Assembly: GCA_022710645.1 (NCBI GenBank)
Contig: JAKLGL010000002.1
Coordinates: forward strand, 14,337 to 78,336
Source of the DNA: Patescibacteria group bacterium
GTDB taxonomy: Bacteria > Patescibacteriota > Patescibacteriia > Magasanikbacterales > GWA2-37-8
Reading direction: 5' to 3'
DNA length: 64,000 bases
Positions within the stretch are counted from its first letter, which is position 1. Every line of letters starts with the position of its first letter. Below, piece after piece: positions 1-9,513 of this stretch. A model generated the notes under the pieces. The model was not told the DNA's origin. It saw only the letters and a program-made list of their open reading frames with translations, and did not search any database. Position numbers and translations under genes: made by a program.

Positions 1-1753
1 TTTGACATTTTGTTTCTCCGGGTTTTAATTCTTCGCTGACTTTTTCTATCGGATCACCGGATGGAATCCAACGCGAGACGATAGGATGAGTGTAAAAACC
101 CTGTCGACCATCCGACTTACCCCAAAGTAAAAATTCCAATTTCTGTTTTTTAAAATCTATTTTTGTTTGCAACAAAAGATAACTGCCGGTGTCATTTTTA
201 AATCTAAAATCTAAAATAGGCTCGTAAAGCGCGGCATCGGTTCCGGGATTTTTATTTACCGGATCGGCATAATAACTGACGACCAAACTGTGGTTATGGC
301 GTTCTGTAATATCCATACCTGAATTCATCGCCATACGAAAAAGAGTTGTTCCGATTTGACACATTCCTCCGCCGATTTCTTTTTCTATTTTATCGCCTTT
401 TATCACTTCTTCCGGCAAATAACCGTTTTCTGCTGTAAAAGGTCCGGCATATTTAACAGCGGAAAATTCTTCATCCGGAGCTATCAGAGTTCCATTGAGA
501 CGCTCCACGGCATGCGCAATATTTTTTATACGATTACTATGACTGTCCAAGAAAGTAGAAATACCCGTACCCAAGAGGTCTTTGATCCCTAGATCGTTTA
601 TCTGGCCCAATTTCAACTCCGATTCTGTTTTTTCCACAATCAAACTTACCGCCGGAGTCGTTGTTCTTTGTTCGCAAGTTCGCTGTTTAAAATTATTTGT
701 TATTTCAGTTATAGATTTTTCTATATCCAAATTCAAACCTTTTTCTCCGCTTTTGAATTCTCGCACTTTTCCGTCAACAATAGAAAATTTCGGATTTTCA
801 ACCGGCACATCCACGATGCTTTTGACGCTTTGCAAATAAGCGACAATTTTTTCACGATTGAGATCAAAATACAAATTACCACCATCGTCTTTGTCGGCTG
901 ATAACCATTTACTTATCTCTCCGACGCGAATAGTAAAATCTTCCTCGTTTCCTTCCAGGTTTTTATAGCTCAGAGTCAAATCACCGCAATTGATCAATTT
1001 TTGTATTTGTTCTTGTCGATTCTGTAAATCTCCGGAAAGAACTTTTGGCAAGAATTGATGACGTTCTATTTTAACGGTTTCCAAATTTAGATTTTTCAAA
1101 TTTTTCGCCGTATCTTCGGTAATTTTGTCATAATCGAAAACTTGACCGATTTTTTCCGAAACAATTTCGTATTTAAGTGGCATCAGTGAAGTTATTTGTA
1201 TATCGGCATTATGAGCTTTATCTTCGCTTTTATCCAAAGATAAGCGTAAATTTTCCTTAAAATTAAAAGTATCAAATTTTAAATCAAATTCTGTTTTTTT
1301 GTTTTTTATCAAAAGCCATAATGGATCGACATATTGTCGCCAACCGGAACTCTCTCTACCGTAAGACATAACTTTATTTACAAATTCTTCGCTGTAAAAA
1401 TTGATAAGCGGCAAGCTATCTTCCCCTCTTATTAACACTGTCTCCACTTTGAAATCGCGACGATCGCCGTTTTCCAAAAGAAAATAATTCAAATCTTCGG
1501 CCATCAAACGATCATTGAGGTTGTCCACGAAATTTTTCAATTCCTCTTTTTTCATACCGCCCAAATCATAAGCGCCCAAAAATATTCCCGGATAAACGCG
1601 ATCAGTATAATATTTTTTATAAACAAAAACACTTGCGATAAAACAAGCGCCTAATACCAAAACAACGGCTAAAATTTTGAGAATTGTTTTTAGTCGTTTT
1701 CGAGGTTGTTCTTGCTGGAGAACTGGGATTTGCACACCCGGAATATTTTCCAT
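1..1753 (-). CDS. VanW-domain protein. N-terminal TM anchor. The start codon is at 1751-1753; the C-terminal end runs off the window start (partial).
   Basis: Minus-strand reading frame open from the ATG at 1751-1753 to position 1. Begins MENIPGVQIPV, followed by a hydrophobic segment. Contains GGGMCQIGTTLFRMAMNSGMDITERHNHS, which matches the VanW-family core. Absent from the ORF track because no stop falls in the window. Confidence 0.7.
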   Translation of the reverse strand, partial: MENIPGVQIPVLQQEQPRKRLKTILKILAVVLVLGACFIASVFVYKKYYTDRVYPGIFLGAYDLGGMKKEELKNFVDNLNDRLMAEDLNYFLLENGDRRDFKVETVLIRGEDSLPLINFYSEEFVNKVMSYGRESSGWRQYVDPLWLLIKNKKTEFDLKFDTFNFKENLRLSLDKSEDKAHNADIQITSLMPLKYEIVSEKIGQVFDYDKITEDTAKNLKNLNLETVKIERHQFLPKVLSGDLQNRQEQIQKLINCGDLTLSYKNLEGNEEDFTIRVGEISKWLSADKDDGGNLYFDLNREKIVAYLQSVKSIVDVPVENPKFSIVDGKVREFKSGEKGLNLDIEKSITEITNNFKQRTCEQRTTTPAVSLIVEKTESELKLGQINDLGIKDLLGTGISTFLDSHSNRIKNIAHAVERLNGTLIAPDEEFSAVKYAGPFTAENGYLPEEVIKGDKIEKEIGGGMCQIGTTLFRMAMNSGMDITERHNHSLVVSYYADPVNKNPGTDAALYEPILDFRFKNDTGSYLLLQTKIDFKKQKLEFLLWGKSDGRQGFYTHPIVSRWIPSGDPIEKVSEELKPGETKCQ

Positions 1754-4169: not shown

Positions 4170-4183
4170 TTCCCTACGCCTTT

Positions 4184-4276
4184 GGAGAGGTGGCTGAGTT
4201 GGTCGAAAGCGGCACACTGCTAATGTGTTGTCTCGTTCTCAAGACGGGACCCAGGGTTCGAATCCCTGCCTCTCCG
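4184..4276 (+). tRNA. tRNA-Ser (anticodon GCU), long variable arm, no encoded CCA
   Basis: Acceptor GGAGAGG/CCTCTCC, D-arm, anticodon loop CUGCUAA, long variable arm, T-loop GGTTCGAATCC. Confidence 0.9.
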
Positions 4277-4466
4277 CATAAAAAATCACCGTAAGGTGAT
4301 TTTTTTATACGGGGAGGAGAAAGCAAAAAGTTTTTCTTTCGTCGGGGTGAGAACGCCGGAGCGATATTTTATGAGCTTGTGAGCGAATAAAATCGCGAGG
4401 CGGTGGCTAGCCCGAGGAGTTGGAAAACGACGAGAGGCGAAGCCGAATCCCTGCCTGCCTCTCCGC
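4271..4466. repeat. Left copy of a roughly 195 bp imperfect direct repeat. It starts in the last bases of tRNA-Ser, includes a terminator hairpin (ATCACCGTAAGGTGAT plus T-run) and a structured segment, and ends in a second, degenerate copy of the tRNA 3' end (CGAATCCCTGCCTGCCTCTCCGC).
   Basis: Near-identical to 9232-9424 (a few substitutions/indels). Confidence 0.85.
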
Positions 4467-4513
4467 CAGATGTCCAAGTTCGAACCGAAGCAGAATAAGT
4501 GTTTTTGGACAAT

Positions 4514-4556: not shown

Positions 4557-5342
4557 TTATTGTTTCTTATTGAATCGTTTAAAATAATTATCTATCTCAT
4601 CCCTAAGTTCAATTCCTACTCGTTCAAAACAATCTAGTAAATCTTTATATGTACCCTTACCATCAAGAAAATCCCAAAATTCATCGGCTACTTTAAGCTC
4701 ATTATCTAAATCAAGCATTCCTCGCATTGTCCATCGAGTATAAGGTTCTGGTTCGTAGGGATTATATGGAATTGCGATAAATGTGTTTATGTCAGCTTTT
4801 GGATTATTTGCTAAAATCACAGCAACCCACTCAAGTAATGTTCTTTTAAACTCCTTGAATCCTCCGGCGTTAGGTTTTGCAGTTTTAATATCAAATAAAT
4901 AATAACCTCCGTCTTTTGACTCAAACATCAAATCCACTTTGGTAGGCTTTGCTTTTATCATCTCGCCAGATTGGCAAACTTTTCTTATTCGTTCTATTTC
5001 TTCTTTTTTGTTTGGTGATGTTGTCGCTGTCGTTAATCCGTCAATAATTTTCTGTATTTCTGCTTGTGCGCCAGTGCTTATCCGATCTCCGGCAGTAGCC
5101 TGACATGTAGCCATTTTGAAATTCTTTTGTGCTAGAGCCAAGCCAACTGGTTCAAAAATACTTGTTCCAAAATTAGTATTTAGAGAGTGGATAAATGAAT
5201 AAAGTGCAAGTCTATCTTTACCCAAAAGACGAGTATGGAAAGGCATCGAAGCCGGTTCCGGTTTGTAATTTTGGAATTTATTTCTGAGACTTGCTTTTAG
5301 TACATCCTCAACATTTTTAACTTGTTCTTTTGATAGTGCCAT
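4557..5342 (-). CDS. Type II restriction endonuclease, TdeIII-like family
   Basis: 261 aa. The N-terminal region (MPFHTRLLGKDRLALYSFIHSLNTNFGTSIFEPV) resembles the RE_TdeIII family from memory. Immediately downstream of, and co-oriented with, a DNA methyltransferase. Confidence 0.55.
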   Translation of the reverse strand: MALSKEQVKNVEDVLKASLRNKFQNYKPEPASMPFHTRLLGKDRLALYSFIHSLNTNFGTSIFEPVGLALAQKNFKMATCQATAGDRISTGAQAEIQKIIDGLTTATTSPNKKEEIERIRKVCQSGEMIKAKPTKVDLMFESKDGGYYLFDIKTAKPNAGGFKEFKRTLLEWVAVILANNPKADINTFIAIPYNPYEPEPYTRWTMRGMLDLDNELKVADEFWDFLDGKGTYKDLLDCFERVGIELRDEIDNYFKRFNKKQ

Positions 5343-5346
5343 AAAA

Positions 5347-6921
5347 TTATTTTGATTTAAAATGAAAAATTATTTCGGAATATGGATTCCTATCCCGTTC
5401 TGTTCGATTCAAAACAGGTCTTTTAAATTGATTTACAATCTTCATTCCAGATTTTTCAGCAATTTCTGGATAAAGATTATATTTATCGTTTGCAACAAGG
5501 AAAATATCGTAATTTTCCTTTAAATATTTCTTGCAATTATTTAGAACATCAGCTATTCCCTGAGCATATGATCTGCGAGCCTCCTGTCCTTGCCCTTTAT
5601 AAAGCGGACCGATTTCTAGATCATCCTTTCGTTTAAATCCGAGCAAATCGTAAGCATAAGCGTGTTGCTCGTGATAATCTATTTGTCCAACATAAGGAGG
5701 CGAGCAAAATATACCTGAGATTTTTTGTTTTTTAAGAATCTTTGCAAATTCCGGATTCTGCTTTTCAACTTTTTCAAAAATATCCACAGCTCTTGAATCA
5801 CCAGCAATAGCTGAGTAATGGACTGGTTTTCGCAATCTTTCAAATTCTTTTATTCTTGAAACAGTGTCGTAAGCATAGCGATTAAGCATTGTTTTGATTG
5901 AAAACAACGGCTTGCAAATCTTTTTATGCTTGTAGCAATAATATGTAGTTAATTGTGGTTCTTTTAGGGTAGCAAGATCACTATGTGTTGTAGCTCTGCA
6001 TGACCTAATTGTTCGACTTAAAATTAAAGCCAGAATCTTTTTTGTTTTTAAATCTTTCTCTTGTTTTATGGTATTGAAAACATGATCAATTTCTTTTCTC
6101 ACACTATCCATAAACCAAGTATCCAAAAATGACTCTGCTTTATCCTGTTTCAATTTTATTGAATATTTTTTAAGTAATTTTTGATAGGTAGGCAAAAACT
6201 CTTTTTCTTTCTCTGATGAAAACTTTTTTTCATCAAAATTTCCTTGGTTTATTTTGTATTTAAAATCTGAACCGGGAAAATGCTTGTTATTAAACTTTGC
6301 CAATTCTGCCAACAATTCAGTTTCAAACTCCTGGATTTTATTATCATGTTCAAAAGTATCAATAGCCGAAAGCATTTTCTTTATCGCCTTCTGTAAATAT
6401 TCATGATCGTAATTTGTTGCTTTACAACTTGCAATCATGCAATTAAATTCGGACACATCAATACCAACAGAATGAATACCCATTTCCAATGATTGGATAA
6501 TTGTTGTGCCAGAACCAAGAAAAGGGTCGAGAACTATATCACCATTTTTAAAATAAACTTCTTTTTTAAAATCATCTGTATGGGAATCAATAAAATATTC
6601 AACAAGTTGTGGAATATATTTCCCTTTATATGGATGTAATCGATGAACATGCTTTGTTGTATCTTTTTCTCTAAGATTATCGAAAGATAATGCCCAGTTT
6701 AAATCATCACCGAGTTGCTTCTTCCAATCAATCTCTCGTTTACCTTTCCATGATTCGTAATACTTTTTCAAATCATTCAAATCAATAAGGGTTGACCCAT
6801 TTTCTCCAAGTTTCTTAACCTTTCCATACTGAACAAGGTAAGAAATATTTGTTGGTGATACTTCTTTTTCAAGGTAATCCGTCGCCCATTTTGATGCTTC
6901 GTGTATTGTTACTAATGACAT
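5347..6921 (-). CDS. Type II DNA methyltransferase, amino-MTase (N4-cytosine or N6-adenine). Motif I is DPFLGSGTT and motif IV is SPPY.
   Basis: DPFLGSGTT (AdoMet binding) near residue 133 and FCSPPY near residue 400. The SPPY form favours N4C. Four-nt gap to the REase gene. Confidence 0.85.
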   Translation of the reverse strand: MSLVTIHEASKWATDYLEKEVSPTNISYLVQYGKVKKLGENGSTLIDLNDLKKYYESWKGKREIDWKKQLGDDLNWALSFDNLREKDTTKHVHRLHPYKGKYIPQLVEYFIDSHTDDFKKEVYFKNGDIVLDPFLGSGTTIIQSLEMGIHSVGIDVSEFNCMIASCKATNYDHEYLQKAIKKMLSAIDTFEHDNKIQEFETELLAELAKFNNKHFPGSDFKYKINQGNFDEKKFSSEKEKEFLPTYQKLLKKYSIKLKQDKAESFLDTWFMDSVRKEIDHVFNTIKQEKDLKTKKILALILSRTIRSCRATTHSDLATLKEPQLTTYYCYKHKKICKPLFSIKTMLNRYAYDTVSRIKEFERLRKPVHYSAIAGDSRAVDIFEKVEKQNPEFAKILKKQKISGIFCSPPYVGQIDYHEQHAYAYDLLGFKRKDDLEIGPLYKGQGQEARRSYAQGIADVLNNCKKYLKENYDIFLVANDKYNLYPEIAEKSGMKIVNQFKRPVLNRTERDRNPYSEIIFHFKSK

Positions 6922-6930
6922 AAGTTTATT

Positions 6931-7554
6931 TTAAAATTCTTTTCTTAATACTCCTACGACCTTTCCTTGAATGACAACATTTGATTCGTAAAATGGCTTC
7001 ATTGTTTGGTTTGCCGGAACAAGTTTTATCCTATCCTTTTCTCTGTATATTTTTTTGAGTGTTACTTCGTTTCTATCCGGCATATACGCTACCGCCTTTT
7101 CTCCATCATCTACTGATTGCTGATCTCTCACAACGACGATGTCTCCGTCCGATATTCCTTCTTCAATCATACTCAGACCAGAAACTTTGAGTGCGTAGTA
7201 ATCATGTCCCAGGGAAAGCATACTTCGCGGTACTTCTATTGGTTTTGGGTCGCGGATGGCTTCAATTGGACCACCAGCAGAAATAATTCCCATTAGAGGT
7301 ATCATTACTTCTGGAACCCTGTGGTTGTGCAAAGCGTTGATTGATCGTTTTTTTCCTTTATCCACCAAAAGAAGATTTTTACTTCGCAAAGAATAAACAT
7401 GCTGATGAATTGTTGGCACTGAACGCTTAAAAAACTTGGCTATTTCTACCAGTGAAGGTGAGAAACCATTTTCTTGGCGATATTCCCGTGCAAATTGTAG
7501 GATTTCGGCTTCCCGTTTTGTAGGTTTACCTATTCCAATACTTGACTTCTTCAT
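6931..7554 (-). CDS. lexA: LexA-type repressor (N-terminal winged HTH plus S24 peptidase domain)
   Basis: Ala-Gly autocleavage site in IISAGGPIEA, catalytic Ser in GLSM, Lys in VTLKKI, N-terminal HTH. Confidence 0.8.
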   Translation of the reverse strand: MKKSSIGIGKPTKREAEILQFAREYRQENGFSPSLVEIAKFFKRSVPTIHQHVYSLRSKNLLLVDKGKKRSINALHNHRVPEVMIPLMGIISAGGPIEAIRDPKPIEVPRSMLSLGHDYYALKVSGLSMIEEGISDGDIVVVRDQQSVDDGEKAVAYMPDRNEVTLKKIYREKDRIKLVPANQTMKPFYESNVVIQGKVVGVLRKEF

Positions 7555-7578
7555 ATACCTAGAATTATAATACCTAAA

Positions 7579-7604
7579 GATAACCTAAACAAGAGCGGGT
7601 TATC
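7579..7604. promoter_or_regulatory. Candidate operator: perfect 7-bp inverted repeat GATAACC-N12-GGTTATC in the divergent lexA / 7633-gene intergenic region. A TTATCCACA DnaA-box-like 9-mer overlaps its right arm.
   Basis: Inverted repeat seen directly, centred between divergently transcribed genes. Confidence 0.4.
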
Positions 7605-7632
7605 CACACTATTAATAAATTAACAAAACACT

Positions 7633-8202
7633 ATGGAACAAGACAAAGAAATTTCGGCAATGAATGAAATTATTGCCTCATTAAACAATTTGGATGATGG
7701 ACAAAGACAGAGGGTTATGAAATATGTACTTGAACGATTTGGTGCTACAACCAATTCCCTAACAAACCCCTCAACATTTTCTCCGGTGTCTCAACCCGCT
7801 CCTCAATTCGATGAACTTGGAAGCAGTCAAGCCACAAGAGTAATTGACATCAGAGCTTTTAAAGAAGAAAAATCCCCCCGTTCTGCTATTCAAATGGCGG
7901 TTCTGGTCGCGTTCTATCTCCAAGAACTAGCTCCTTCTGATGAAAGAAAAGCAACTGTAGATTCTGGAGATATAGAAAAATATTTTAAGCAAGCAAGCTA
8001 TAAATTGCCTTCTGGTAAAAATGGAGCTGCAGATACTCTCACAAACGCTAAAAAGGCGGGGTATTTAGAGATAGCTGACCGTGGTACATATAAACTAAAC
8101 CCTGTCGGATATAATCTCATCGCCCACAGTTTGCCCAATGGCGATAGCGAGCTAAGAAAAACCAGGACCAAGGTAAAAAAGGTAAAGAAAGCTAAAAAAT
8201 AG
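7633..8202 (+). CDS. Hypothetical protein, 189 aa. Possible winged-helix-like C-terminal region and a basic lysine-rich tail.
   Basis: ORF with a 2-nt gap to the downstream gene (operon). Ends KTRTKVKKVKKAKK. Confidence 0.6.
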   Translation: MEQDKEISAMNEIIASLNNLDDGQRQRVMKYVLERFGATTNSLTNPSTFSPVSQPAPQFDELGSSQATRVIDIRAFKEEKSPRSAIQMAVLVAFYLQELAPSDERKATVDSGDIEKYFKQASYKLPSGKNGAADTLTNAKKAGYLEIADRGTYKLNPVGYNLIAHSLPNGDSELRKTRTKVKKVKKAKK

Positions 8203-8204
8203 TT

Positions 8205-9017
8205 ATGGATTCTGCTAATGACAACCTAGCAGAAAAACTGAAAGCCACCGAAAAGCTACTAAAAAGAGTTAATTCAATAAAATCTAAGCAGCTCGGTTCG
8301 ACTTCGGTTAAAGATGAGATAAAGGCTTTTGTAAAAGCCTATTTTGAAATTTTACAGTCCGATTTAAAGAATCGAAATATTTCAACAGGTGATCTTGATA
8401 TTGCAATGCAAAATTTAATAACTCTTGCAAATACCAAAGCTCTCACCTCGAAGTACAAAACTCTACTCAAGAAAGTTAAAATGGAATTGGTAATAGTAGA
8501 ATCATCGGGAACATACACTAGTCGTAATAGAGACGCGGGAGTACTAAGTAATGGATATGAACAAGCTATATTGAAAATCCTAAATCAAATCGTTCCTGCT
8601 ATTGGTAATTCATATCAACAAGTTTTGAATGATCTGAATTCTCCAAGAATTTCATATAGAGGCACTGTTGCCGAAATAAGAGAGGTTTTAAGAGAAACTC
8701 TTGATTACCTCGCTCCAGATGAGGATGTCAAAAACATGAAAGATTTTAAACTTGAAAAAGATATGACAAAGCCAACAATGAAACAAAAGGTTCGTTATGT
8801 CTTGAGTAACCGAGGAAAGTCAGAAACTGCTACAAAATCTCCCGAGGATGCTGCTCATATTGTTGATGATGGTGTAGAGAGGTTGGTTAGATCAACTTAT
8901 AATCGTGGGTCGTTATCCACCCACACAACTACTTCTGACAGAGCGGAAGCATGCCAAATAAAAATGTATCTTGATACAGTTCTTTGTGAATTATTAGAGA
9001 TACATAGCAAAAACTAA
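8205..9017 (+). CDS. Hypothetical protein, 270 aa. N-terminal helical/coiled region. A C-terminal R-x5-H (RGSLSTH) may be a HEPN-like motif; this is tentative.
   Basis: ORF only; the motif was noted by eye. Confidence 0.6.
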   Translation: MDSANDNLAEKLKATEKLLKRVNSIKSKQLGSTSVKDEIKAFVKAYFEILQSDLKNRNISTGDLDIAMQNLITLANTKALTSKYKTLLKKVKMELVIVESSGTYTSRNRDAGVLSNGYEQAILKILNQIVPAIGNSYQQVLNDLNSPRISYRGTVAEIREVLRETLDYLAPDEDVKNMKDFKLEKDMTKPTMKQKVRYVLSNRGKSETATKSPEDAAHIVDDGVERLVRSTYNRGSLSTHTTTSDRAEACQIKMYLDTVLCELLEIHSKN

Positions 9018-9231
9018 GGAGCCACTCATAGTAGACGGGGTATATGCGTGACGAAAGTAAATTTACATAAAATAATCTATCTCATTCTTTCCCTTTGTTG
9101 ATTTCGGTTGAGGAACTTCAAACCATTCAGGATGTTGTTTAAACATATCTCGTAATTCTTTTATAATTGGATCAAGAGTCCAGATTGTGAACCGTCTAAA
9201 TTGCCGTTTTGGTTCTAATTTCGGGACATCA

Positions 9232-9424
9232 TCTCCGCATATAAAATCACCGTAAGGTGATTTTTTTATACGGGGAGGAGAAAGCAAAAAGTTTTGCTTT
9301 CGTCGGGATGAGAACGCCGGAGCGATATTTTATGAGCTTGTGAGCGAATAAAATCGCGAGGCGGTGGCTAGCCCGAGGAGTTGAAAAACGACGAGAAACG
9401 AAGCCGAATCCCTGCCTCTCCGCA
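9232..9424. repeat. Right copy of the roughly 195 bp direct repeat; ends in an exact copy of the tRNA-Ser 3' end (CGAATCCCTGCCTCTCCGCA)
   Basis: Alignment to 4271-4466. Confidence 0.85.
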
Positions 9425-9513
9425 TAAAAAACCTGCCTATAAAGGCAGATTTTATATTAATCTAAATAAACATTGAAACAGTCTTTTATTTAAAGTATAC
9501 TTAAAAATGCCTT

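Follow-up and report, generated by a model that had tools for sequence, protein, structure and literature searches.

The window analyzed here, a stretch of 64,000 nucleotides from a Patescibacteria group bacterium (assembly GCA_022710645.1, contig JAKLGL010000002.1, positions 14,337 to 78,336), contains a genomic island in which a two-gene operon, called A-B in the following, lies next to a gene for a LexA-family repressor and a restriction-modification (R-M) pair. Gene A (7633-8202, plus strand) encodes a protein of 189 aa with an N-terminal helical hairpin (residues 2-35), a disordered linker (40-66), a winged helix (73-166) and a K/R-rich tail. Gene B (8205-9017, plus strand), which starts after a gap of 2 nt, encodes a protein of 270 aa with a four-helix putative adaptor domain (1-100) and a predicted C-terminal pP_pnuc_1 domain (about 117-263). 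Both genes are divergent from lexA (6931-7554, minus strand), the leader of the R-M cassette, whose product of 207 aa combines a winged helix-turn-helix (wHTH) domain with an S24 autopeptidase. Downstream of lexA and co-transcribed with it lies a gene for an N6/N4 DNA methyltransferase (5347-6921, minus strand; PF01555, 1.2e-17; PADLOC MTase_II, 2.9e-233), followed by one for a TdeIII/HinfI-like type II restriction endonuclease (4557-5342, minus strand; PF09520 RE_TdeIII, 8.1e-95; PADLOC REase_II).

An examination of this DNA from its letters alone, referred to as the sequence-only reading, had described the two adjacent genes divergent from a bona fide LexA with an Ala-Gly cleavage site, the neighboring R-M pair and a horizontally acquired island. 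All of this was confirmed: a check of the open reading frames found A and B where they had been placed, the R-M pair is identified by the matches given above, and LexA and the island are supported by the observations described below. With a rough probability of 0.55, we consider A-B to be a two-protein antiphage defense effector, probably of the abortive-infection or nuclease-effector type, which is gated by LexA at this locus. In this genome, it is most likely the cargo of a mobile LexA-methyltransferase-endonuclease cassette.

Conservation and genomic neighborhood of A-B

A-B is a conserved operon and an old, mobile, obligate and tightly coupled pair across phyla. In a census of 80 loci from 80 GTDB species (individual loci are denoted by L numbers), A was located directly upstream of B in 77, with a gap of mostly 12 nt or less (range -4 to +50). 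Two of the three exceptions, L042 and L090, are situated at a contig end, and L023 has no detectable A. In one metagenome-assembled genome of the Acidobacteriota, the two proteins are joined in frame (L088:9032-10702, plus strand; A at residues 95-262, B at residues 290-554), which may represent either a genuine fusion or a fault of the assembly.

The distribution of the pair is patchy, comprising 149 of about 185,579 species from more than 10 phyla. It was found in Patescibacteria, Acidobacteriota, Verrucomicrobiota, Planctomycetota, Nitrospirota and several proteobacterial classes, as well as in Actinomycetota, Gemmatimonadota, Dehalococcoides and Omnitrophota. Isolates carrying the pair are Luteimonas sp. 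R10, L. soli, Ralstonia chuxiongensis and an Arenimonas sp. For A, 247 homologs were found. For B, a word index yielded 359 homologs and an exhaustive profile search 1030 clusters at 50% identity (424 of them below 1e-30; nearly all 260-300 aa), and searches of PLSDB plasmids, INPHARED phages and IMG/VR gave no match.

The most common neighbor family of A-B is the specificity subunit of type I R-M systems. Subunits of such systems are encoded within 3 kb and on the same strand in eight loci, namely L028 (HsdR-A-B-HsdS...HsdM), L047, L050, L057, L069, L089, L092 and L096, and in several of these the pair lies between them. Latent effectors such as PrrC are classically found embedded in operons of this type. 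Co-occurrence with defense genes, which the sequence-only reading had proposed to check, also includes GmrSD and AbiEi/Eii in one of these eight loci (L057) and, elsewhere, an Mrr_cat endonuclease (Ralstonia) and a HEPN_RiboL-PSP gene (Arenimonas) nearby. A ParA-like gene is additionally located upstream of A in Ralstonia.

Three arrangements among these neighborhoods can be mentioned individually. L057:3776-17008 is a gammaproteobacterial type I R-M operon in which HsdR, RhuM, HsdS fragments, A-B, GmrSD, AbiEi, AbiEii-WYL and HsdM are all encoded in one direction. In an Acidobacteriota locus, a type IIG-like methyltransferase of 1488 aa with a C-terminal S24 domain is encoded next to A-B (L067:3680-8143, plus strand). 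In another lineage of Patescibacteria (L001, L002 and L025; 4869-8855 in L001 coordinates), genes for a GHKL-type ATPase (HATPase_c_3, 555 aa) and an unannotated protein of 289 aa precede A-B on the same strand, with an HTH gene and a large serine recombinase nearby, and this arrangement may be a four-gene version of the A-B system.

The LexA-methyltransferase cassette and its divergent slot

The LexA protein of the window scores 147.9 bits on TIGR00498 (cut-off 110.95), which makes it pass as an equivalog, and contains the domains PF00717 Peptidase_S24 (8.7e-25) and PF01726 LexA_DNA_bind. The Ala93-Gly94 cleavage site as well as the catalytic dyad of Ser128 and Lys167 are present, with G94, S128 and K167 being invariant among 7 relatives. 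More than 120 clusters of relatives with at least 72% identity occur in several classes of Patescibacteria. Using this LexA, 80 metagenomic loci were collected, 67 of which extended far enough downstream. As a methyltransferase-sized gene directly follows lexA in all 67, the LexA of the window leads a mobile cassette of LexA and methyltransferase genes. That it is the SOS master regulator of its host is not obvious, and the sole copy of its candidate operator in 64 kb is located in lexA's own intergenic region.

The methyltransferase of the window was matched in 49 of the 67 loci, and its TdeIII-like endonuclease, encoded after the methyltransferase, in 45. Three of the 18 non-matching loci, which carry different genes, were sampled and contain C5 methylases (L170 and L173, in one case beside a HindVP endonuclease gene in convergent orientation) or a small N6_N4 methyltransferase (L114). 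A 4.4-kb block (4573-9016, exactly R-M-LexA-A-B) recurs at other genomic sites with 77-79% DNA identity. LexA-A-B was found linked to four types of R-M systems, namely TdeIII with an N6_N4 methyltransferase (window, L005, L020 and L102), an EcoRI-like enzyme with a D12 methyltransferase (L012-L014), Eco47II with a C5 methyltransferase (L015), and HNH with a LexA-methyltransferase fusion (L100). Such fusions, in which LexA wHTH, S24 and N6_N4 methyltransferase domains form a single protein, were observed at L100:3958-5319 (minus strand, 453 aa) and L021:558-2078 (minus strand, 506 aa). Together with the S24-bearing methyltransferase of L067, they suggest that self-cleaving SOS sensors and DNA methylation are functionally linked in a direct way.

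Of 77 loci, 75 have a divergent gene as the first one upstream of lexA, and the cargo in this slot is highly diverse (182 proteins in 96 clusters, 55 of them singletons). Annotation of the 96 cluster representatives identified ThsB_TIR (4 clusters) and SMODS/CBASS cyclases (3 clusters) with Patatin, SLATT_4, Cap15, AGS_C and E1/E2. Among PADLOC candidates it revealed PDC-M50A/B (the commonest, in 10 loci), PDC-S54 and PDC-S16. HEPN_Swt1, Schlafen/AlbA_2 (SLFN), DUF4238, GIY-YIG and ClpP/SDH proteases were also present, and precomputed annotations show a DUF1508-DUF2188-DUF4145 module in L104-L106. All in all, 57 Pfam families were matched across the 96 representatives, i.e., few matches, and many of the slot clusters, which appear to lack a Pfam family, are candidates for new defense genes.

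A-B is one cargo among many in a slot which holds recognized antiphage systems, and this provides the strongest support for a defense function of the pair. The sequence-only reading, which had taken A-B for a candidate antiphage or toxin module held off by an SOS- or phage-responsive repressor, thereby receives strong contextual support from the slot contents and the R-M surroundings. Its LexA link, on the other hand, applies to a part of the family: a divergent LexA next to A-B is confined to a subclade of Patescibacteria, and most A-B loci in other phyla are without LexA.

The same context has to be weighed against the idea that A-B is an ordinary toxin-antitoxin or addiction module, with B as toxin and A as DNA-binding, autorepressing antitoxin, which stabilizes the R-M island by killing cells that lose it and next to which LexA would lie by chance or in a secondary role. 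A tight operon of two genes led by the one for the DNA-binding partner (77/80 loci, gap mostly not more than 12 nt), a patchy and horizontally mobile distribution and housekeeping neighbors at many loci are all expected from such a module. Other pairs of this kind occur nearby (AbiEi/Eii in L057, Gp49/HTH in L015, ParE-like in L003), and R-M systems themselves act as addiction modules (PMC3874152). However, the slot is otherwise occupied by CBASS, Thoeris and PDC and not by classic toxin-antitoxin pairs, and PLSDB plasmids, which are rich in addiction modules, yielded no match to the pair. Moreover, with about 190 aa, an H1-like winged helix and a K-rich tail for A and about 270 aa in two domains for B, the proteins exceed the size of a typical type II pair, and an A-B fusion exists. 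We regard this explanation as doubtful, although it is the best of the alternatives to an antiphage effector.

Protein B and its predicted nuclease domain

The sequence-only reading had assigned neither protein to a family it could name with confidence, which for B is contradicted by a match to PF18165 pP_pnuc_1 ("predicted pPIWI-associating nuclease") at residues 147-240, scoring 46.6 bits against a cut-off of 26.3 (3.4e-12). PF18165 was matched by 63 of 63 aligned B homologs, a HEPN family by none of them. The corresponding PADLOC model, Aga_Nuclease, covered B partially, over 50 residues. In the alignment of B homologs, Y137, Q139, R148, S150, R152, G153, R159, E160, R163, E164, D167, P190, Q194, K195, R203, R229, Y232, R234, S236 and H240 are invariant or nearly so. 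The AF2 model of B (pLDDT 89.5) is all-alpha and consists of a four-helix bundle (1-100) and a C-terminal domain (117-263).

The heptapeptide RGSLSTH at residues 234-240, which had been suspected to be a HEPN-type motif, is indeed a conserved R-x5-H (R234 in at least 90% of the homologs, H240 invariant) and is placed by the AF2 model in a loop between the last two helices. The proposed family assignment fared less well, with sequence as well as structure searches returning no HEPN family and no HEPN-clan profile being matched by B in Pfam, NCBIfam, PHROGs, PADLOC or a PDB profile search. Membership of B in the HEPN group is hence not established. NCBIfam and PHROGs gave zero matches for either protein, and sequence searches against solved structures yielded nothing meaningful (best E-values of the A and B searches, 0.1 and 1). 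Neither a PD-(D/E)xK nor an HNH nor another established DNase fold was found in B. Despite the name of PF18165, no PIWI or Argonaute gene was present beside any B locus examined (annotated neighborhoods; 145 immediate neighbors). Literature searches on pP_pnuc_1, PF18165 and "pPIWI-associating nuclease" retrieved no description, and the passages found of the PIWI paper by Burroughs (2013) do not describe a domain named pP_pnuc_1.

A possible clue to the roles of the two domains of B comes from another cargo pair. In L120, a protein of 272 aa (106-921, minus strand) and a partner of 201 aa (933-1535, minus strand) occupy the slot. The 272-aa protein resembles B in the N-terminal four-helix domain only (27 bits; hhalign probability 82%, E-value 1e-5), and its C-terminus carries a canonical HEPN-type RNxxxH (TRNHSAHP). 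Neither protein of the L120 pair has a Pfam match. Since the 272-aa protein shares just the N-terminal domain with B and ends in RNxxxH, the comparison suggests that the N-terminal domain of B may serve as an adaptor and its C-terminal domain as an exchangeable warhead. The 201-aa partner was also compared with A, with which it has the layout in common (hairpin, S/T-rich linker, globular C-terminal domain); homology was rejected, as the hhalign result was not significant.

Protein A

The Lys-rich tail of A contains 10 K/R among the last 24 residues, and its winged helix, with the topology H-S-H-H-S-S, resembles known wHTH domains in structure, so that both the basic tail and the winged-helix-like region predicted by the sequence-only reading are borne out. 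The combination of a winged helix with a Lys-rich tail is akin to the architecture of histone H1. The sole Pfam match for A is Mrr_N at residues 129-163 (E-value 0.0045), which with 17.5 bits remains below the cut-off of 29.5. Mrr_cat was found in neither A nor B in the Pfam search.

These features could also be read as those of a split, two-subunit type IV-like DNase, in which A recognizes foreign or modified DNA and B cuts it, resulting in direct, non-abortive defense. Mrr_N as the only Pfam match of A, the winged-helix fold with its Lys-rich tail and the A-B fusion, which suits a single enzyme, agree with this idea. So does the presence of restriction genes of types I, II, IIG and IV (Mrr_cat, GmrSD) near the pair, an arrangement also seen in immigration-control regions. 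We nevertheless consider such an enzyme unlikely, given that the Mrr_N match is below threshold (17.5 versus 29.5 bits) and that B possesses no PD-(D/E)xK, HNH or other established DNase fold. In addition, repression until after DNA damage has occurred ill suits an enzyme that acts on incoming DNA.

The regulatory region between lexA and A

The region between lexA and A is 78 nt long. Most of it is taken up by a conserved block of approximately 50 nt (7555-7608), which occurs in each of the 71 distinct sequences upstream of lexA, with any cargo. In lexA orientation, the block reads TGTGGATAAcc-N4/5-CTTGTTTAGGTTATnTTTAGGTAnTATAnT, or in its fuller form TGTGGATAAcc-N4/5-CTTGTTTAGGTTAT(g/c)TTTAGGTA(g/t)TATA(c/a)T-N7/8-ATG. 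Beyond 7608, i.e., past TGTGGATAA, the sequence is cargo-specific and unrelated between loci.

The best candidate for a LexA operator within the block is a conserved tandem direct repeat, GTTTAGGTTAT / cTTTAGGT (7572-7592, minus strand), with the general form GTTTAGGT-N3-(g/c)TTTAGGT. It is preferred for three reasons. TTGTTTAGGTT is invariant in 71 of 71 lexA upstream regions. In relatives whose LexA has another DNA-binding domain, the tandem repeats in this place are other ones as well (ACTAGAA twice in L100, TAGAA twice in L021), and LexA of Patescibacteria is said to recognize a motif built as a direct repeat (PMC7739468). A LexA box of the Gram-positive type, GAAC-N4-GTTC, was not found in the intergenic region by visual inspection.

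The tandem repeat hence appears to be a better candidate than the inverted repeat GATAACC-N12-GGTTATC (7579-7604), which the sequence-only reading had proposed as repressor operator. This repeat is perfect as described and is the sole perfect copy in 64 kb. Taken alone, it is weak evidence, with a perfect repeat of at least 7 bp and a spacer of 0-20 nt arising in 6.7% of shuffles of the intergenic region and in 0.4% when the spacer is fixed at 12 nt; it was accepted as real because the surrounding block is conserved in the 71 related loci. As a fixed dimer operator it was downgraded, since it is perfect (6 bp or more) in just 39 of the 71 cassettes, its spacer varies between 11 and 13 nt, and changes in the inner CC of the cargo-side arm (which lies on the right on the plus strand and on the left in lexA orientation) are not compensated by the other arm. 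At the RNA level, the repeat corresponds to a predicted 8-bp 5' hairpin (-8.1 kcal/mol, z -2.6).

A promoter scan predicted a sigma-70-like promoter that faces outward, TTGACT-18-TATAAT (7542-7571, plus strand; 11/12 matches). Its -35 element falls in codons 3-5 of lexA, where AGTCAA is kept in 66 of 71 cassettes. Its -10 element is part of the perfect palindrome ATTATAAT (7563-7571), which is present as AGTATACT in most relatives and also supplies the -10 element of lexA. As this predicted -10 element is readable on both strands, it makes a built-in bidirectional promoter, and the invariant repeats stand directly downstream of the outward -10. Cargo start codons are mostly 35-110 nt away from the lexA ATG (median about 59), a gap that is almost wholly conserved block and thus leaves little room for a promoter of the cargo's own. 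The simplest reading is that the cargo would be transcribed from the outward promoter of the cassette, through the repeats. Because this conserved promoter/operator block adjoins lexA and the cargo starts within 35-110 nt, gating of A-B by LexA is plausible.

At the outer edge of the block lies the conserved 9-mer TTATCCACA (7600-7608, plus strand), which appears as TGTGGATAA or TGGGGATAA in nearly all cassettes and is identical to the DnaA-box consensus. It recurs 6 nt upstream of the start codon of A in L021, and as TTTTCCACA in L012, the surrounding intergenic sequence being different. Possible roles of this element are those of a DnaA site, a junction to the cargo or another operator. The upstream regions of A in loci without LexA did not share a common motif, so that no universal A-specific operator was found.

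The recurrence of TTATCCACA beside the cargo and upstream of A in spite of differing intergenic regions is one of the observations that would be expected if A-B were a defense or toxin system outside the control of LexA. The conserved block would then serve the autoregulation of lexA, and A-B would be constitutive or controlled by A or, e.g., by DnaA at this 9-mer. That LexA is missing from most of the A-B loci of other phyla, that the arms of the inverted repeat are not co-conserved and that A is itself a wHTH protein point in the same direction. Still, the gap between the lexA ATG and most cargo start codons (35-110 nt) consists almost entirely of the block, and the outward -10 and -35 elements are predicted within the block and the lexA codons, the -10 being followed directly by the invariant repeats. 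LexA-independent control at this locus hence seems improbable.

Proposed function of A-B

For an antiphage effector gated by LexA, the following sequence of events can be envisaged. LexA would bind the tandem repeat, possibly together with the flanking repeat arms, and thereby repress both lexA-M(-R) and the outward cargo promoter. Cutting of phage DNA by the R-M enzyme, or single-stranded DNA from phage replication, would give rise to RecA filaments, and DNA damage or these filaments would trigger self-cleavage of LexA at Ala93-Gly94 and de-repression of A-B. A could then bind nucleic acid via its H1-like winged helix and basic tail, and its N-terminal hairpin may engage the four-helix adaptor of B, holding or targeting it. 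Finally, the Arg/His site of the predicted pP_pnuc_1 domain would degrade RNA or DNA, by which the infection would be stopped. The data show the anatomy of the locus, its conservation, its context and the geometry of the promoter, and from these we infer LexA binding, inducibility, the interaction between A and B, the substrate of B and the phenotype. R-M imbalance and restriction are known to induce SOS, SymE is a precedent of a LexA-repressed toxin (PMC3874152), and DNA-damage regulators controlling defense genes exist (PMC12392091).

Several points weigh against this explanation. The nuclease activity of pP_pnuc_1 is a prediction, and so is the function of every member of the A-B family. 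PADLOC-DB v2.0 contains neither a match nor a model for A, and A-B is absent from PADLOC v2 as a system, the only trace being the 50-residue partial match of B. The immediate neighbors of A-B are heterogeneous and, outside the R-M-linked subsets, include housekeeping genes, which also fits a toxin-antitoxin cassette. With respect to LexA, its binding to the tandem repeat and the co-repression are deduced from position and conservation, and no second copy of this candidate operator was detected within 64 kb. As a wHTH protein encoded first in the operon, A could also autoregulate the pair instead of LexA.

A broader and more tentative proposal, which we consider possible but short of probable, is that Patescibacteria carry a mobile "defense carrier". 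In such a carrier, a LexA-methyltransferase(-endonuclease) cassette would have a conserved, symmetric, LexA-gated promoter that is bidirectional, driving any second-line system borne in the slot (CBASS, Thoeris, PDC-M50, or winged helix with pP_pnuc_1). Restriction or self-restriction would lead to RecA filaments and LexA cleavage, and as a consequence to more methylation as well as to armed abortive-infection cargo. If true, this would represent a hard-wired relay from first-line to second-line immunity, and A-B would be a new defense system with a four-helix adaptor and interchangeable nuclease warheads.

Relation to known defense systems

The closest relation of B is that to PF18165/Aga_Nuclease. 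The match at residues 147-240 is above the gathering score and includes the stretch which holds invariant Arg, Glu and His residues, and the domain is presumed to be a defense effector in both settings. In contrast, the name-giving association with PIWI or Argonaute is missing in the loci examined, the domain of B follows a four-helix N-terminal domain in the same protein, and it is always paired with a winged-helix protein.

With HEPN RNase effectors found in R-M operons (PrrC, RloC, DUF4145, HEPN toxins), B shares an all-alpha C-terminal domain with R-x5-H between the last two helices. A-B likewise occurs inside type I R-M operons, the LexA slot holds DUF4145 and HEPN_Swt1, and the L120 protein sharing the N-terminal domain of B ends in RNxxxH. 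However, the residue following the Arg is Gly or Ser in B, where Asn, His or Asp would be usual, many additional arginines of B are invariant, and no sequence or structure search ties it to a HEPN family. PrrC and RloC furthermore have an ATPase or anticodon-recognition domain, which B does not.

With regard to control, CapH/CapP, BrxR/CapW, DdaA and SymE resemble the locus in that a DNA-damage-sensing transcription factor beside defense genes is proposed to act as a gate (PMC12392091, PMC3874152). They differ from it in that the regulator here is a canonical LexA (TIGR00498), which leads or is fused to a methyltransferase, travels as a cassette and is accompanied by a conserved bidirectional promoter for interchangeable cargo. 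Type II R-M systems with a C-protein or an HTH-methyltransferase are similarly headed by a small DNA-binding regulator, which in some relatives is fused to the N-terminus of the methyltransferase and which would autoregulate, but in the window this regulator is composed of a LexA wHTH and a self-cleaving S24 domain. Because of the latter, control would respond to RecA and DNA damage and not only to the concentration of the regulator. The slot, in turn, is reminiscent of the P2/P4 and Pseudomonas core defense hotspots, where a fixed landmark lies next to a hypervariable set of defense genes (here 96 clusters with 182 proteins), although the landmark in Patescibacteria is a mobile R-M cassette that appears to supply the cargo with promoter and repressor.

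In the literature searched, neither pP_pnuc_1 systems nor cassettes or fusions of LexA with a methyltransferase nor a LexA-linked defense hotspot of Patescibacteria were found to be described. The locus combines known kinds of elements, namely cargo of a defense hotspot, DNA-damage-gated immunity and nuclease effectors. If our explanation holds true, it would add a widespread two-gene candidate antiphage system (about 1,000 clusters at 50% identity, more than 10 phyla) with identifiable catalytic residues and culturable hosts (Luteimonas, Ralstonia chuxiongensis, Arenimonas). It would also offer a model for immunity in the ultra-small CPR, in which a mobile R-M cassette gives repressor and promoter to interchangeable second-line systems. 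Restriction, the SOS signal and abortive infection would be linked, the LexA-methyltransferase fusions being a direct sign of this link, and lexA followed by a methyltransferase gene, together with the 50-nt block, would be a landmark for mining defense genes of Patescibacteria.

Borders of the island

The island is anchored on its left side by a tRNA-Ser(GCT) gene (4184-4277, plus strand; ARAGORN) and bracketed by a 186-nt direct repeat (repeat family D1), the left copy of which (4271-4456) and the right copy (9232-9417) are 97% identical. The start-to-start distance of the two copies, which enclose the block of five genes, is 4961 nt. The 3' end of the tRNA gene (4259-4285) is repeated at 9405-9431, where an intact copy follows the right repeat, and at about 4446-4468, where a degenerate copy with a 4-nt insertion ends the left repeat, giving three copies in total. 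Together with the recurrence of the 4.4-kb block elsewhere, these features bear out the assumption of an island, which is not distinguished by its G+C content within the window. No recombinase gene is present in it, in contrast to L005 and L100, where a large serine recombinase is encoded alongside, and DNA homology between the window and L005 or L020 ends at the stop codon of B. Insertion could have involved tandem or older insertions, or homologous recombination.

It is very improbable that A-B serves a mobile element as recombination-directionality, partition or regulatory factor in SOS-induced excision or transfer: in L005, B is followed on its own strand by a gene for a large serine recombinase, recombinases flank L100 and L001/L002, a ParA-like gene precedes A in Ralstonia and tRNA-derived direct repeats bound the island, but the homology of the island DNA stops exactly at the stop codon of B, the window is without a recombinase, most of the 80 loci have none nearby (only 3 matched the seed), the pair lies inside type I R-M operons and B has many invariant residues of catalytic type.

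An open reading frame of 74 aa (9063-9287, minus strand) starts in island-specific sequence behind B and enters the right copy of the repeat. At its N-terminus, 15 residues are a duplicate of those that begin the open reading frame at 4174-4326, its only match is a faint one to Rep3_C (E-value 0.054), and it is probably a gene remnant or a spurious open reading frame.

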